Positions 31,241-52,490 of a stretch of DNA of 64,000 nucleotides are shown one piece after another. Numbering within the stretch: position 1 is the first letter of the stretch; every line of letters starts with the position of its first letter. The notes under the pieces were generated by a model. That model ran no database searches and was not told the origin of the DNA. It saw nothing but the letters and a program-made list of their open reading frames with translations. The stretch comes from Escherichia coli (lineage in GTDB: Bacteria > Pseudomonadota > Gammaproteobacteria > Enterobacterales > Enterobacteriaceae). The stretch is from the NCBI RefSeq assembly GCF_044324785.1, contig NZ_CP172127.1; one strand, written 5' to 3'. The translations under genes and the position numbers were made by a program.

Positions 31241-34200
31241 CTATCTTTTTTTATCGTTTGACTGTCTGGAGTGACGACAATTCCAGGCTTTCTGTGTGCT
31301 TTTTGCATCTTTAGCACTAATATCACCACAATCAATTAGTTCCTGAAGTACGTCACATCTGTCGGGTTTTTTCCCATCACTCCAGAATCTGTCATTTATT
31401 ATGTCATTGACACGATCAGTTATCCCTGTGTCTGCAACATTTCCACGAGAAGCTATCATTGTTATATCTAATGCTAGTCCCGGATTATTCAATATTAGAG
31501 AGTCAAATATTCTTTGTGATGCTGTATCGTTCCACCATTTTGTCAATGCTTTTGCAGCATTATCATCTGCTTGCTGCTGTGCAGGGCTTTTGGGCCATGG
31601 AATTGGCAAGGGGAATGGTCTAGGAAAAACTTCTAACCCCAGAGGATCTGTATTCGTAACTGGATTCAACGGATACTGATAAAAATTCCATCCGCCCTTC
31701 AGCCCAATCGGATCCTGAGTGATATACCGCCCCTGCAGCGGGTCATAATAGCGGTGGCGGTTGTAATACAGGCCGGACTCCTCATCATACTGCTGACCCG
31801 GCAGGCGGATGGGCTGCTGCAGTTGATGCGGGTTCTCTTCATTCAGCAGGTTGCCCCACTCATCGTATTCTGCGCACCATTCTGTTGCCCCTTCCGTGCT
31901 GACAAGCGCCAGCGGCAGGCCGCGATGGTCGCAGTGGTACAGGTGGATTTTTCGCGCCGGCGTGTACACCGGGTCCATCTGGTTTTGTATCTGCTCCACC
32001 GTCAGGCCGCACGATGCCAGCCAGCGGCGGCTTTCCTCACTCACCCGGTCAGCCAGGATTTCACTTTCCAGCCGGTCGAGCATCTGCACCAGCACCGGCG
32101 GGAACACCACACTGCCACCGTCTTCACCGCCGGACTGCTGAAGCGCATCCGCCAGGCTGCGGCGCTGCGTTTTCGCCAGCTCACCGGTGGCGGTTTCGAC
32201 CCTGATGAGTGGCGTGAAGCTCCCCGGCTGATAAACCGTCTGGATGCGGGTTCTGTCGTTCTGTATCGTGGTCAGCCGGTCGCCGTCCCAGCCGTACCAG
32301 GTCACTTCCGGTTTCCGTGACAGCGACATCCAGCCCGTCAGGTCCCGTTCACGCCGCCACACCCGTTTTGCCACCCTGCGGCCCAGCGGGTCGTAAAGAT
32401 AGCGACTTTCGACCAGCGGCTCTGCATATTGTGTCCGCGTGTAGTGCACCAGCCGGTGCCGGCTGTCGTAATGATACCGGTGAGTCCGCTCATCATCCGT
32501 GCGGATAACCCCTTCCGGGCTGAGGTCGGTTTTCTCCGTCAGCCTGCCGTGACGGTCATACCGGTAAAGATAGTGCGCGTCACGGGCGATACGGTTATCC
32601 GGCCATGCGCTGAGGGGGCTGTCCGGGTGCAGCTCCGGGTCGGGCAGGCGGTTGCCCGCCGGGTCCGTGGCATACGGGATGCGGATATCAAGGTTCGCTG
32701 CCGTGGTGTGGACGCCGGTCAGCCTGCCGGTGTCGCTGTAGCTGTAACTCCGGGTCTGGCGCGGGCTGCTGATGCGGATGAGTTCGCCGTTGTCGTTCCA
32801 GGTGTAATCGCGGTCATACTGCAGGCTGTTCAGGTGCTGGCTCTGTAACTGCCCGGCAGGGGTGTAAGCGGTGGTGAGTTCATAACGGCCGAAGCTGCGC
32901 AGCGTTTCCCGGTGCAGGCGGTCGCGGGTGAAATCCACCAGCGGTGTGTCGCCGAGTTTCATGCCTGACAGCCAGCCGCTGCCGTAGGTCAGCCATTCCA
33001 CGGCGGGCAGGCTGTCCGGTATACAGCGGTTCGCCAGTCCCTGCGCGTTGTAAGCGTGTCTGGTTTCATGCTGCCAGAGCAGTGCTTCCGTCTGCAGGTG
33101 ATGCACCGTCTGGCGCTCACCGGTCAGGCGGCCTTTCTCATCATACCCGTAATGCACCGTCACCCGGTGGCCTTCGCTGAGATGGCTGATGCCTGTCAGC
33201 CAGCCGCGTTCGTCATACTGCCACTGCTCTGCAGGTTCACCCTTCACGGTACGCTGCGTGATGCGGTCTGCTTCGTCATAGTGCCAGTGGGTGACCAGCC
33301 CCTCATCCTCGCTGCGGATAAGTTTGCCGGTCAGGTCGTGGTGATAACGCTGTGTGCGGCCGTCAAAGCCGGTTTCCTGTATCAGACGGTCAAGTACATC
33401 GTAACGGAAGGTGGTGTGGCTGCCGTTTTCACTGGTCAGGCGGATGACCCGTCCGGCAGCATCGTATTCCATACTGCGCGTCAGACCACCCTGCGTGGTA
33501 CGGATGGCCTTTCCCCACGTATCGTACTGTGTCCCGTTTCTGCTGCCGTCCGGGGCAATGACGGCGGTCAGGTCACCGGCGGCGTTGTATTCATACCGCG
33601 TTTCATGGCCCTGCATGTCTTTCACCGCAATTAACTGTCCACGGCTGTCGTATGCGCGGTACTGGCTCAGGCCTTCCTCGCGGTGCACCGCCGTCACCTG
33701 ACCAAAACGGTCATGGTCATAACGGGTTACATAACCGGAACAGTCAGTGACGGTCAGCAACTGACCGTAACGGCTCCATGTCATGGTTTTCCGGCTGCCG
33801 GTGGCATCTTCCGTTGCGCAGGGTAAGTCACTGTGTGGATTATCATAACGGTAGCGGGTGATATCGCCGTTGTGTGCGGTTTCCTGAATCAGACGGCCGG
33901 ATTCATCATATTCCCGGCGCAACTCCAGCCCGTCAGTCCCGGTGGCTGACGTTAACTGGTTGTGGTGGTTATAGTAAAACGCCGATGCCCTGCCATCCGG
34001 TGTGGTGATGCGCGTGATGAGTCCCGTCACCACATCCGGGCTGTACTCAGTCGTCCGGCCTGCGGCATCCGTCTGTGCCTTAAGCCTGCCCACCGCGTCA
34101 AACTGACTCTGCGTGACGCTGCCGTCCGCGTGTTCCTTTTTCACCACCCGCTTCAGCCCGCCTTCGCCCTGCGTGTGCAGGACTTCACGGCGGTCCAGGC

Positions 34201-35374
34201 TGTCGGTGATGGTGATGTGGTCTTTCTCATACTGATACGTGTAGCTTAAGCCTGCCGGGTTTAGCTGTTCTGTCACCCGCCCGTCACTGTCGTAACGGTA
34301 ACGGATTTCCGGCCGGCCCGTGTGACGGTGCGCCACCATCCGGCCCCGGTATTTATCATCGTAAGTAAAGCTGCGCACCTGTGTGCCGCTGCGGTCATAC
34401 ACCGCCGCCAGTTCGCCGCGTGGCGTCCAGCCATAGCGTACCAGCGGCGCGGCTGGCAGGTTGTCCGGATATTCCGGGTCGTGCGTCAGCCACACGGCAG
34501 ACAGACGGATGCCGTTGTCCCGGCCATATTCGGTGTAACCCGGCAGGGTATCAGGAAAAGCGGACGGTTCCGCCCCGCCGGAAATGGCCTGCTGCCGGGC
34601 CTCTTCTGCCCGCTGCGCCTGCGTGGTCAGTACCAGCCGGAAGTGACGCCCGGCACCATCCGTCACGCCGGTGATTTCGCCGCTGAATTCGCCGCCAGCC
34701 TCACGGTGGAACGTCTGTGTGCGCCCGAAGCGGTCCACCAGCCCGGTCAGTACCCGGTACGGCGGCAGCGGCGCGGGCAGCACCTCATCCGCCTCCGGCA
34801 CCCGCTCACACCAGCCGAGTACCCACCACGGCCCCTGCGGACTGTTTGTCGCCAGATAACGATGCGGACTCAGGCGAAGCTCTTCCGGCAGCGCCTGCCA
34901 GAGTGCGGCCAGCCGGTGACCTTCATCCAGTTTCGCCATGCCGCCGCGCACCAGCCAGAGTGACTCGCTGCGGCTGTAACCGTCCTCACCGGGAAACAGG
35001 TGCTCAAAATACAGGCTTCTGCCGCCGTTATCACTGAGTATCAGTGTGTTATCGCGCAGCTGTAAGCGGATATCCGCAGGCATTTTCCAGCCGGGGCCGA
35101 GGCTCCCCACCGGCGCGGGCGTTTTTGTCCGGTAACTGCTGTAGGTGCGGGAGAGGATGAACGGCAGCGGGCCGGGCAGGGCAAGGTCGGTTTCTCCGGG
35201 AAGGACCTTCGCACCGAGCAGCGGATTGACCGGATGGCCGGACGTCACCCCGCCGGGGCACACCGAACAGGCCACACCGGTGGGGGCACCGATGCGCACC
35301 CCGGCAGAACCCTGAACAATGCTACCGCCATACTGCGTCATGTCGCCCTGACGCGCCGCCGGTTTTCCGCTCAT
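31241..35374 (-). CDS. rhsB: Rhs-family YD-repeat polymorphic toxin; symbol assigned by synteny (nikR-adjacent locus) only
   Basis: 1377 aa; many YD repeats (RYRYD, YTYQYE, YDxxGR); conserved core end PxxxxDPLGL at ~31634; GC-rich core with an AT-rich C-terminal tip (31241-31633). Confidence 0.9.
31660..32092. repeat. Direct repeat of the Rhs core 3' end (main copy); partner at 29897-30336
   Basis: See partner repeat. Confidence 0.85.
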
Positions 35375-48815: not shown

Positions 48816-48955
48816 CTTAGTTCCTTGAATTCGTTATTTTTTCGTAAGCGGAATGCCTACGGTCTTGCTTCCAGTTTAGTGGCGAGGGTGGACGGATGAC
48901 AACACCATAACTGGCAGGGTATGCTTAATTCCGCATTTTCCGATGAGGGATAAAG

Positions 48956-49315
48956 ATGAGCAAACCACCTCTTTTCTTTATTGTTATCATTGGCTTAATC
49001 ATCGTCGCCGCATCGTTTCGTTTTATGCAACAGCGACGGGAAAAAGCTGATAATGATATGGCACCGCTCCAGCAAAAGCTGGTGGTGGTGAGCAATAAGC
49101 GGGAAAAACCGATTAACGATCGCCGTTCGCGCCAGCAGGAAGTGACTCCGGCAGGCACCAGTATGCGCTATGAGGCAAGTTTCAAACCGCAAAGCGGAGG
49201 AATTGAGCAGACGTTTCGCCTCGACGCCCAGCAGTACCATGCCCTGACAGTGGGCGATAAAGGTACGCTGAGCTATAAAGGAACGCGCTTTGTCAGCTTT
49301 GTTGGCGAACAATAA
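48956..49315 (+). CDS. yhhM: DUF2500-family protein
   Basis: 119 aa with N-terminal TM, MSKPPLFFIVIIGLIIVAASF. Confidence 0.85.
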   Translation: MSKPPLFFIVIIGLIIVAASFRFMQQRREKADNDMAPLQQKLVVVSNKREKPINDRRSRQQEVTPAGTSMRYEASFKPQSGGIEQTFRLDAQQYHALTVGDKGTLSYKGTRFVSFVGEQ

Positions 49316-49317
49316 GG

Positions 49318-49587
49318 TTATTTTTTAACTTTAAATTTCTTCTGCCAGACCAGCAGTTCAAACACGCCGAAAAGGAAAATCCGCACCTTTTCGGCGGTGG
49401 TCATCTGCGGGCCATCTTTCGGTAAAGTGGATTTCAACAGCGCCAGCTGCATACCATGCATCAGCACGGTAAAAATCAGCGCCACGTTAACGAAAATATT
49501 CAGCGGACGCGGGAAGGGATGCACCAGGTTGAGGATTAAAAATCCCCAAACGCAGAGCATTAACAAACGTCCAATATTAATCAACAT
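49318..49587 (-). CDS. yhhL: DUF1145-family small membrane protein
   Basis: 89 aa from ATG at 49587 (MLINIGRLLMLCVWG); overlaps the rsmD 3' end by 11 bp. Confidence 0.8.
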   Translation of the reverse strand: MLINIGRLLMLCVWGFLILNLVHPFPRPLNIFVNVALIFTVLMHGMQLALLKSTLPKDGPQMTTAEKVRIFLFGVFELLVWQKKFKVKK

Positions 49588-50173
49588 CACTTTCTCCTTG
49601 TGCTTCGCGTTGATACAGCCGATAAGCCACCTGACCCGCCACTTTTTCCCGATGTAATGACCAGTTTGCCGGAACAGTGGGCAGACCGTTTTCGACTTCG
49701 CTTTCGACATAAATCAGGGCTTCGTCAGCCAGCCAGCCGTTATCTTCCAGTAAATTTATCGTCTCTTCTAACAAGCCACGGCGGAACGGTGGATCGACAA
49801 ACACGATATTATGCGGTGTGCCTTTTTGTGCCAGGAATGACATCGCGTTGCTGTTCACCACGCGCGCATTGCCTGCTTTTAGTGTCGCCAGATTCTTAAT
49901 TAACTGCTGAGAAACTGCACGATCCATCTCAATCAACGTGGCCCCCGCAGCGTAGCGCGATAACGCTTCCAGCCCCAGCGCGCCGCTCCCGGCGAAGCAA
50001 TCCAGACATTGGGCGTCAACAATGACCGGAGCCAGCCAGTTAAACAACGTTTCGCGTACGCGGTCGGTGGTGGGGCGCAGACCTGGACTATCAGGAACCG
50101 GGAGTTTACGGCCTCGCCACTGCCCGCCAATAATGCGGATTTGGCCGCTGCCGGAATGATTCGGTTTTTTCAT
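49577..50173 (-). CDS. rsmD: 16S rRNA m2G966 methyltransferase
   Basis: 198 aa, DPPF motif (VFVDPPFRRG). Confidence 0.93.
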   Translation of the reverse strand: MKKPNHSGSGQIRIIGGQWRGRKLPVPDSPGLRPTTDRVRETLFNWLAPVIVDAQCLDCFAGSGALGLEALSRYAAGATLIEMDRAVSQQLIKNLATLKAGNARVVNSNAMSFLAQKGTPHNIVFVDPPFRRGLLEETINLLEDNGWLADEALIYVESEVENGLPTVPANWSLHREKVAGQVAYRLYQREAQGESDVD

Positions 50174-50322
50174 GATAAATTGCTCAATCCGCCAGATAAC
50201 ACATACTTGCAGGCGGTGATGTGAATTAAGTTAAGTGATAGACTATTTCATCATTTTTTTAGCTGCTATGTACATAGCGTTAACGCTGTGCCATGAAGCA
50301 ACAGCGAGGAGTGTAGTCGCAA

Positions 50323-51819
50323 ATGGCGAAAGAAAAAAAACGTGGCTTTTTTTCCTGGCTGGGCTTTGGTCAAAAAGAGCAGACCCCGGAAAAAGAGACA
50401 GAAGTTCAGAATGAACAACCGGTTGTAGAAGAAATCGTTCAGGCGCAAGAGCCTGCGAAGGCTTCTGAACAAGCCGTTGAAGAGCAGCCGCAGGCGCATA
50501 CTGAAGCCGAGGCGGAAACTTTTGCTGCCGAAGTTGTGGAAGTCACTGAACAGGTTGCTGAAAGTGAAAAAGCGCAGCCTGAAGCGGAAGTCGTTGCACA
50601 GCCGGAACCGGTCGTAGAAGAAACGCCGGAGCCAGTGGCTATCGAGCGTGAAGAGCTGCCGTTGCCGGAGGACGTCAACGCCGAAGAGGTTTCGCCAGAA
50701 GAGTGGCAGGCCGAAGCGGAAACCGTAGAGATTGTCGAAGCGGCGGAAGAAGAAGCGGCTAAAGAAGAAATCACCGACGAAGAGCTGGAAGCACAGGCGC
50801 TGGCTGCCGAAGCGGCAGAAGAAGCGGTGATAGTGGTTCCTCCGGCAGAAGAAGAGCAGCCGGTGGAAGAAATCGCTCAGGAGCAGGAAAAACCAACCAA
50901 AGAAGGTTTCTTCGCGCGCCTGAAACGCAGCCTGTTAAAAACCAAAGAAAATCTCGGTTCCGGATTTATCAGCCTGTTCCGCGGTAAAAAAATCGACGAT
51001 GATCTGTTTGAAGAGCTGGAAGAACAGCTGTTGATCGCCGATGTGGGCGTGGAAACCACACGTAAAATTATCACCAATCTGACGGAAGGCGCATCCCGCA
51101 AGCAGCTTCGTGATGCCGAGGCGCTTTATGGCCTGCTGAAAGAAGAGATGGGCGAGATTCTGGCGAAAGTCGATGAGCCGCTGAATGTTGAAGGTAAAAC
51201 GCCGTTCGTGATCCTGATGGTGGGCGTCAACGGTGTGGGTAAAACCACGACGATTGGTAAGCTGGCACGTCAGTTTGAGCAGCAGGGTAAATCGGTGATG
51301 CTGGCGGCGGGCGATACTTTCCGTGCAGCAGCGGTTGAACAGCTTCAGGTCTGGGGTCAGCGCAACAATATTCCGGTGATTGCCCAGCATACCGGTGCGG
51401 ATTCCGCCTCTGTTATCTTCGACGCCATTCAGGCAGCTAAAGCGCGTAATATCGACGTCTTGATTGCCGATACCGCCGGACGCCTGCAGAACAAATCGCA
51501 CCTGATGGAAGAGTTGAAGAAAATCGTCCGCGTGATGAAGAAACTCGACGTTGAAGCGCCGCATGAAGTTATGCTGACTATCGATGCCAGCACCGGGCAG
51601 AACGCGGTAAGCCAGGCCAAACTGTTCCACGAAGCCGTTGGCTTAACCGGCATCACGCTAACGAAACTGGACGGCACGGCGAAAGGCGGGGTAATTTTCT
51701 CGGTGGCTGACCAGTTTGGTATCCCTATCCGCTATATTGGTGTCGGCGAACGTATTGAGGATTTGCGTCCGTTTAAGGCGGACGACTTTATAGAGGCACT
51801 TTTTGCCCGAGAGGATTAA
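50323..51819 (+). CDS. ftsY: Signal recognition particle receptor
   Basis: 498 aa; acidic E-rich N-terminal region then NG domain with GVNGVGKTTT. Confidence 0.96.
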   Translation: MAKEKKRGFFSWLGFGQKEQTPEKETEVQNEQPVVEEIVQAQEPAKASEQAVEEQPQAHTEAEAETFAAEVVEVTEQVAESEKAQPEAEVVAQPEPVVEETPEPVAIEREELPLPEDVNAEEVSPEEWQAEAETVEIVEAAEEEAAKEEITDEELEAQALAAEAAEEAVIVVPPAEEEQPVEEIAQEQEKPTKEGFFARLKRSLLKTKENLGSGFISLFRGKKIDDDLFEELEEQLLIADVGVETTRKIITNLTEGASRKQLRDAEALYGLLKEEMGEILAKVDEPLNVEGKTPFVILMVGVNGVGKTTTIGKLARQFEQQGKSVMLAAGDTFRAAAVEQLQVWGQRNNIPVIAQHTGADSASVIFDAIQAAKARNIDVLIADTAGRLQNKSHLMEELKKIVRVMKKLDVEAPHEVMLTIDASTGQNAVSQAKLFHEAVGLTGITLTKLDGTAKGGVIFSVADQFGIPIRYIGVGERIEDLRPFKADDFIEALFARED

Positions 51820-51821
51820 CA

Positions 51822-52490
51822 ATGATTCGCTTTGAACATGTCAGCAAGGCTTATCTCGGTGGGAGACAGGCGCTGCAGGGCGTTACGTTCCATATGCAGC
51901 CGGGTGAGATGGCGTTTCTGACCGGTCATTCCGGCGCAGGGAAAAGTACCCTCCTGAAGCTGATCTGTGGGATTGAGCGGCCCAGCGCCGGGAAAATCTG
52001 GTTTAGCGGCCATGACATCACGCGTCTGAAAAACCGTGAAGTTCCGTTTCTGCGCCGCCAGATTGGCATGATTTTCCAGGATCACCATCTCCTGATGGAC
52101 CGTACTGTCTACGATAATGTGGCGATCCCGCTGATTATCGCCGGTGCCAGCGGTGACGATATTCGTCGCCGGGTGTCGGCGGCGCTGGATAAAGTCGGGC
52201 TACTGGACAAAGCGAAGAACTTTCCTATTCAGCTTTCCGGCGGTGAACAACAGCGTGTTGGCATTGCCCGCGCGGTGGTGAATAAGCCCGCGGTACTGCT
52301 GGCGGACGAACCGACTGGTAACCTGGACGACGCGTTGTCGGAAGGCATTTTACGTCTGTTTGAAGAGTTTAACCGCGTTGGGGTAACCGTATTGATGGCA
52401 ACGCACGACATCAACCTGATTTCACGGCGTTCCTATCGCATGCTCACCCTGAGCGATGGTCACTTGCATGGAGGCGTGGGCCATGAATAA
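51822..52490 (+). CDS. ftsE: Cell division ATP-binding protein
   Basis: 222 aa, Walker [18 protein letters not shown]. Confidence 0.96.

Follow-up and report, generated by a model that had tools for sequence, protein, structure and literature searches.

The rsmD-yhhL overlap in Escherichia coli: a conserved yhhL start, a drifting rsmD stop and probable independent initiation

The closest described systems are pairs of co-directional genes that overlap by a few bases and are translationally coupled. Of the 14 overlapping pairs tested by Huber et al. 2019, 13 were strictly coupled, all of them of the -4 or -1 type, even where the downstream gene had a Shine-Dalgarno (SD) sequence, so that a strong SD does not exclude strict coupling. 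A 2025 review (PMC12548453) reported that coupling works best at spacings between -4 and +3 nt and suffers more from a shift to negative values than from one to positive values. In a systematic series described in the same review, coupling became weaker the further the spacing moved from -4, with none left at -25. The only enriched spacings are -4, -1 and -8. The pair considered here has also been described. Sergiev et al. 2012 (PMC3384335) stated that yhhL "partially overlaps" rsmD and suggested testing the association of the two genes, while Shimada et al. 2014 (PMC3946193) described an rsmD-yhhL operon with the promoter TTCACA-18-TGTTAT.

The DNA analysed was a stretch of 64,000 nucleotides from E. 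coli (contig NZ_CP172127.1), referred to below as the window. It is reversed in orientation relative to MG1655 and corresponds to roughly 3.59-3.65 Mb of that genome. The features at the junction are as follows.

49577..50173, minus strand: rsmD (yhhF), 198 aa, 16S rRNA m2G966 methyltransferase by ORF, Pfam and PDB match; stop codon TAA at 49579..49577.
49318..49587, minus strand: yhhL, 89 aa, a DUF1145 small membrane protein; start codon ATG at 49587..49585, supported by Pfam, RefSeq, coding signature and homologues.
49577..49587, minus strand: the 11-base overlap, comprising yhhL codons 1-3 and two bases of codon 4 (ATG TTG ATT AA), which read (G)AT GTT GAT TAA in the rsmD frame.
49594..49599, minus strand: yhhL SD, AAGGAG, 6 nt upstream of the ATG and within rsmD codons Gln192-Gly193-Glu194.
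49580..49609, minus strand: variable C-terminal tail of RsmD, residues ~189-198 (REAQGESDVD), past the conserved methyltransferase fold and holding the yhhL ribosome-binding site.
49558..49560, minus strand: ATG of Met10, the one rival start further downstream that is conserved, found at +27 in each of the 83 loci compared; rejected.

The junction reads CAAGGAGAAAGTG ATG TTG ATT AAT ATT GGA on the minus strand. Direct reading of the sequence and the ORF list both gave 11 bases, 49577-49587, shared by rsmD and yhhL. The rsmD frame runs ..GGA GAA AGT GAT GTT GAT TAA, ending in the stop codon, and the yhhL frame, which is +1 relative to that of rsmD and is open across 49318..49710 in the ORF list, begins ATG TTG ATT AAT. 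In E. coli, the TAA of rsmD is built from yhhL codons: the T of this stop is the last base of Ile3, and its two A residues open the Asn4 codon. The ATG of yhhL sits 8 nt upstream of the rsmD stop codon, a spacing of -11, and the start and stop codons themselves are disjoint.

The same overlap is annotated in RefSeq MG1655 (NC_000913.3), where rsmD (b3465) occupies 3604393..3604989 and yhhL (b3466) 3604979..3605248, and strain A37 is annotated likewise. The K-12 genome has the same genes, order, 11-bp overlap, SD and ATG as the window, and the proteins are 99.5% (RsmD) and 98.9% (YhhL) identical. Within the overlap one base differs, at 49584, where the window has TTG and K-12 has CTG; the difference is silent in YhhL (Leu2) and changes Ala197 of the RsmD tail in K-12 to Val in the window. 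With a 1.5-kb stretch as query, the region was found in 5425 of 5426 complete E. coli genomes (92-99% identity), and both genes were annotated under the match in 12 of 12 records among the matches listed. The rsmD-yhhL overlap is already known, because it is present in the RefSeq K-12 annotation and was mentioned in print in 2012, and the junction is an ordinary one. An earlier note on this DNA had placed the start of an 89-aa YhhL at 49587 with an 11-bp same-strand overlap, and its coordinates and gene names were borne out by the sequence, the ORF list and RefSeq. The word "convergent" in its title was wrong, because rsmD and yhhL run the same way; the convergent pair is yhhL/yhhM.

Several observations around the locus may be recorded here. 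The best match to positions 48900-50400 of the window among the 5426 complete E. coli genomes was 99.0% over 1.5 kb; since it was only 99.0%, the strain comes from a sparsely sampled lineage. The convergent genes yhhM (stop 49313..49315, plus strand) and yhhL (stop 49320..49318, minus strand) end 2 bp apart, and a simple scan found no intrinsic terminator between them. Because of both circumstances the two transcripts must overlap, and yhhL-yhhM is an excludon candidate in ExcludonFinder 2025. The ends of yhhS and dcrB (44050/44054) are similarly close, 3 bp apart. Codons ~64-75 of yhhL (49365-49396) contain an inverted repeat, CGCCGAAAAGG / CCTTTTCGGCG, whose 11-bp arms pair perfectly and enclose a loop of 10 nt. 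As RNA, it folds far better than shuffled sequences on both strands (z = -3.56 and -3.45; 0/200 shuffles), and on the plus strand it lies ~50 nt downstream of the yhhM stop, without a U-tract. The repeat is perfect (11/11 pairs) only in the 7 Escherichia loci, with 5-10 pairs elsewhere; it is either a candidate lineage-specific 3'-end or stability element of the converging transcripts or a product of chance.

RsmD of the window matched Pfam PF03602 (Cons_hypoth95) over residues 12-188 with E = 8.9e-64 (214.9 bits versus a cut-off of 24) and the PDB entry 2FPO, 'methylase yhhF', with E = 8e-132 and 197 of 198 residues identical. By these matches, it is a member of the m2G966 methyltransferase family near-identical to the characterised E. 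coli enzyme. The conserved fold ends at about residue 189: the Pfam model stops at 188, and the alignments with PDB homologues stop at 189-191. The tail that follows differs among species in both length and sequence (REK, REI, REAQGAA, REAQGESDAD and REAQGEKHAAVD, each running to its stop codon), and in E. coli it extends to the first in-frame stop.

The downstream product, YhhL, matched Pfam PF06611 (DUF1145) with E = 1.6e-26 (92.4 bits versus a cut-off of 21), and positions 1-58 of the 58 in the profile map onto YhhL residues 1-58. The family is small, with 88 representative clusters in an exhaustive search. That search also returned P0146 from the representative library, a predicted protein of 3349 aa that matches YhhL in 8 separate stretches (24% identity, E = 1e-16); its size and its repeated DUF1145-like segments are odd for a family of ~90-aa proteins.

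For a single junction of this kind a comparison with chance was judged unsuitable, and conservation was used as the test. The loci compared were 83, taken from 80 species-representative Enterobacteriaceae genomes, two E. coli references and the window. The entropy at codon positions 1/2/3 was 0.64/0.03/1.04 for yhhL codons 2-9 and followed the same pattern, 0.37/0.12/1.16, for codons 11-40, and upstream of the ATG the periodicity was confined to the rsmD frame. An ATG or GTG was present at the homologous start position in 71 of the 83 loci, and the other 12 (Kosakonia, Cedecea) had an ATG 6 nt upstream. Moreover, several of the 83 loci had no start candidate besides the homologous start and Met10, and full-length homologues down to ~30% identity retained the 9-residue N-terminus with a basic residue at position 7. 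The start of yhhL is, on this comparative evidence, almost certainly the ATG at 49587, and the reference start of this little-studied small membrane-protein gene was confirmed as sound.

A start further downstream, outside rsmD, was the counter-case raised in the earlier note. A true start at Met10 (49560..49558) would lie past the rsmD stop, leaving the genes without an overlap and shortening YhhL to 80 aa. The ATG at +27 was kept in 83 of 83 Enterobacteriaceae loci, and the database proteins P0145, P0150, P0154 and P0161 are called from there. However, codons 2-9 carry the coding signature, with the second-position entropy of 0.03, the DUF1145 profile begins at Met1, and no SD precedes Met10, the preceding sequence being AUUGGACGUUUGUUA. 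The N-terminal segment is retained in distant homologues, and the residue aligned with Met10 is Tyr, Ala, Thr, Phe or Leu in many of them. The genes called from Met10 encode MIMPGRIL or INLGRLF immediately upstream, and two such calls proved to be gene-caller artefacts. In one (L089), MIMPGRIL is encoded upstream from a GTG that makes a classic GTGA overlap with rsmD, while in the other (L090), from a contig of 1× coverage, INLGRLF is still encoded upstream. Initiation at Met10 is thus disfavoured by the SD, the Pfam profile, the coding signature and the distant homologues and is very improbable.

A start upstream of 49587, which would lengthen the overlap, is even harder to credit. The candidates were the GTG at 49590 and the 130-aa ORF that begins at the ATG at 49710. 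The GTG, 3 nt upstream of the ATG, is present in Escherichia and some Kluyvera, and in the window no stop interrupts the frame as far back as 49710. However, the GTG is replaced by GCG, ACG, GGG or AAC in other genera and lies merely 3 nt after the SD. The extension has no coding signature in the yhhL frame, and several species have an in-frame stop just ahead of the ATG. In the 130-aa ORF, the DUF1145 match begins only at residue 42, which is Met1 of the 89-aa YhhL. The TTG at 49584 (+3) was also considered as a start codon and was rejected, as the position is not conserved.

With the start placed at 49587, AAGGAG and an ATG or its equivalent were found at fixed spacing in 83 of 83 Enterobacteriaceae loci. 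The position of the rsmD stop relative to the yhhL start was distributed over the same loci as follows.

17-nt overlap: 6/83 loci.
11-nt overlap: 53/83 loci.
7-nt overlap: 6/83 loci.
1-nt overlap: 7/83 loci.
1-nt spacer: 1/83 loci.
10-11-nt spacer, the stop being the TAA of TAAGGAG, an arrangement seen in some Citrobacter and Buttiauxella: 10/83 loci.

Beyond these loci, eight distant DUF1145 genes had enough flanking DNA for comparison. An RsmD-family gene was directly upstream on the same strand in 8 of 8, at stop-to-start distances of -4, -4 (after start correction), -1, +3, +9, +10, +11 and +17 nt, and ftsY was divergent in three of the eight. (The ftsY gene of the window, 50323..51819, itself varies in length, encoding 498 aa as against 497 in K-12 and 474 in A37.) Over both sets together, the gene immediately preceding that of the DUF1145 protein was rsmD in 91/91 loci, and the stop-to-start distances ran from -17 to +17 nt.

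As judged from these alignments, the yhhL ribosome-binding site and start are conserved, and the overlap length is variable. No dual-coding constraint was apparent on the last base of the Ile3 codon (T at +8) because ATT persists in 23 of 24 loci in which the rsmD stop lies elsewhere. Given the drift of the stop and the variability of the tail, the value of 11 nt looks like a by-product of the placement of the ribosome-binding site. The downstream ribosome-binding site would have been fitted into a dispensable rsmD tail, and the overlap length itself would then not be a selected device. That overlap length can drift while the downstream ribosome-binding site stays fixed is a caution against inferring coupling from every overlap.

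The question of coupling also depends on how the genes are transcribed. The overlap shows co-orientation, and co-transcription rests on the published operon assignment; according to that literature, rsmD and yhhL are co-transcribed from a promoter upstream of rsmD, which can be located in the window.

50196..50225, minus strand: published sigma-70 promoter of the rsmD-yhhL operon, TTCACA-18-TGTTAT, just upstream of rsmD.

This motif had one match in the window versus 0.02 expected by chance, and a scan of the minus strand found nothing resembling a promoter within rsmD.

The earlier note had read the overlap as implying translational coupling. The overlap does permit coupling, but it does not imply it: the spacing of -11 is outside the optimum, the SD is strong and predicted to be accessible, no masking structure is predicted and the stop position drifts. 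The computed free energy of the duplex between the yhhL SD and the anti-SD at the 3' end of 16S rRNA was -8.5 kcal/mol, which ranks 10/46 among the window genes, as compared with -4.8 for rsmD. The predicted opening energy of positions -18..+12 at yhhL was 5.3 kcal/mol, the sixth lowest of the 46 genes, with a window median of 8.1. No occluding RNA structure beyond chance was predicted at the yhhL start, where a segment of 131 nt had a minimum free energy of -26.2 kcal/mol versus -28.2 ± 3.2 kcal/mol for shuffled sequences (z = +0.63). The fold, opening and duplex values therefore do not support the RNA-unfolding form of coupling, and they predict that independent initiation is possible.

Taken together, the observations argue that yhhL is probably initiated mainly independently, at its own SD, with the overlap a by-product of packing and with room for partial coupling. 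Translation of yhhL would proceed mainly by ordinary initiation at the strong, accessible SD. Ribosomes that end rsmD translation 8-11 nt downstream may contribute some re-initiation, resulting in partial coupling, and ribosomes on the final rsmD codons would transiently mask the yhhL site. We lean slightly towards some measurable coupling between rsmD and yhhL, and the coupling, if any, is likely to be partial. Since the site is strong and accessible and coupling weakens past 4 nt, partial coupling is plausible, and strict coupling is only a proposal.

Under strict coupling, yhhL would be translated essentially only by ribosomes that had just terminated on rsmD and re-initiate 8-11 nt upstream, so that YhhL output would track that of RsmD. 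Such a mechanism is consistent with two genes that are on the same strand, overlapping and co-transcribed, with the strict coupling of 13 of the 14 pairs studied by Huber et al. and with the location of rsmD directly upstream, at -17 to +17 nt, in 91 of 91 loci. Some distant DUF1145 members, moreover, combine weak SDs with very short distances, and the confinement of the stop-to-start distance to within about ±17 nt across the 91 loci could itself reflect selection for coupling. On the other hand, the coupled pairs of Huber et al. were spaced at -4 or -1, and efficiency drops with overlap until none is left at -25. The yhhL SD is strong and accessible, with no predicted occluding structure, and the rsmD stop drifts among close relatives while the SD and ATG are unchanged. 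Strict coupling is consequently considered unlikely, although it is the most credible of the competing explanations. The literature searched yielded no direct experimental data on the yhhL start or on rsmD-yhhL coupling: yhhL was not found in the TRAINSPOTTER, Huber 2019 and Burkhardt 2017 supplements, and the lone INRI-seq match for yhhL was in the antisense off-target list.

The same junction could in principle give rise to an RsmD-YhhL fusion by a programmed +1 frameshift near the rsmD stop, as in prfB. The yhhL frame is indeed +1 relative to that of rsmD, there is an SD ahead of the rsmD stop, and a fusion-like database protein of 254 aa (P0140) exists. In prfB, the SD lies about 3 nt from the stop. 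At the rsmD stop, by contrast, the SD is 14 nt away, GAU as the final codon before UAA offers no slippery re-pairing and the stop position is not conserved, so that neither the slippery codon nor the SD at ~3 nt nor the conservation of a prfB-type site was found. In P0140, the N-terminal part of RsmD is joined to full-length YhhL via a non-coding extension in the yhhL frame (..KAKSKTVYRRYRQTG..). Its frame is shifted far upstream and the non-coding extension is read across rsmD, a pattern typically left by sequencing frameshifts. P0140 is most likely an assembly frameshift error and no real fusion, and a programmed frameshift at this site is barely conceivable.

The pairing of the two genes is of more general concern. 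The rsmD-DUF1145 linkage is unbroken from Escherichia to homologues of ~30% identity (91/91 loci), often with ftsY divergent next door, and this pairing, which hints at a functional link, is the only lead of wider interest from the locus. A joint role of RsmD and the small membrane protein YhhL is a slim prospect. If there were one, YhhL might serve as a membrane-bound partner by which late 30S methylation is localised or regulated, and the tight junction would ensure co-production. No function for DUF1145 was reported in the literature searched.

Overlaps are frequent elsewhere in the window. Of the approximately 30 adjacent gene pairs that run in the same direction, ten overlap: the shared stretch is 4 nt in five pairs, 1 nt in three, 8 nt in one and 11 nt in one. 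This count agrees with the general figure in the literature, which puts overlapping genes at up to one third of those in prokaryotes. The pairs other than rsmD/yhhL are the following.

yhiI/rbbA: 4 nt overlap.
nikB/nikC: 4 nt overlap (GTGA).
nikD/nikE: 4 nt overlap.
livH/livM: 4 nt overlap.
livM/livG: 4 nt overlap.
rbbA/yhhJ: 1 nt overlap at the RefSeq start.
nikA/nikB: 1 nt overlap.
nikC/nikD: 1 nt overlap.
ftsE/ftsX, 52483..52490: 8 nt overlap (ATGAATAA).

The last three were absent from the earlier note, which had given 4-bp overlaps for the first six. Five of these were found as described, yhiI/rbbA, nikB/nikC, nikD/nikE, livH/livM and livM/livG, but rbbA/yhhJ overlaps by 1 bp when the RefSeq start is used. 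The rbbA/yhhJ junction, AGGAGGG ATG ATG, has a tandem ATGATG at 26833-26838. The first ATG (26833) would give a 4-nt ATGA overlap; with the second, which RefSeq uses as the start, the overlap is 1 nt (TGATG). From the end of the AGGAGG it is 1 nt to the first ATG and 4 nt to the second. Further along the window, the rhs region (~27960-35374) is unlike that of K-12. The alignment of RhsB covers only residues 1-1250 of 1411 (95% identity), and therefore its C-terminal tip differs from that of K-12. There was no match to yhhH or yhhI in the window, and ~3.3 kb between yhhJ and rhsB are unexplained by K-12 genes.

Within the window, the overlap most like that of rsmD and yhhL is ftsE/ftsX. In both, the two genes are on one strand, the overlap exceeds 4 nt and belongs to the +1 frame class (8, 11, 14 ...), and the SD of the second gene is located within the first. 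Unlike rsmD/yhhL, however, the products of ftsE and ftsX form a complex; FtsEX is an established complex, whereas we know of no partnership between RsmD and YhhL. The canonical coupled pairs (ATGA at -4, TGATG or TAATG at -1; Huber 2019) resemble rsmD/yhhL in that the latter genes are likewise co-directional and co-transcribed, with a short overlap and the SD inside the upstream gene. The difference is in the spacing: at -11, rsmD/yhhL belongs to none of the enriched classes (-4, -1 and -8) and falls where the efficiency of coupling declines.
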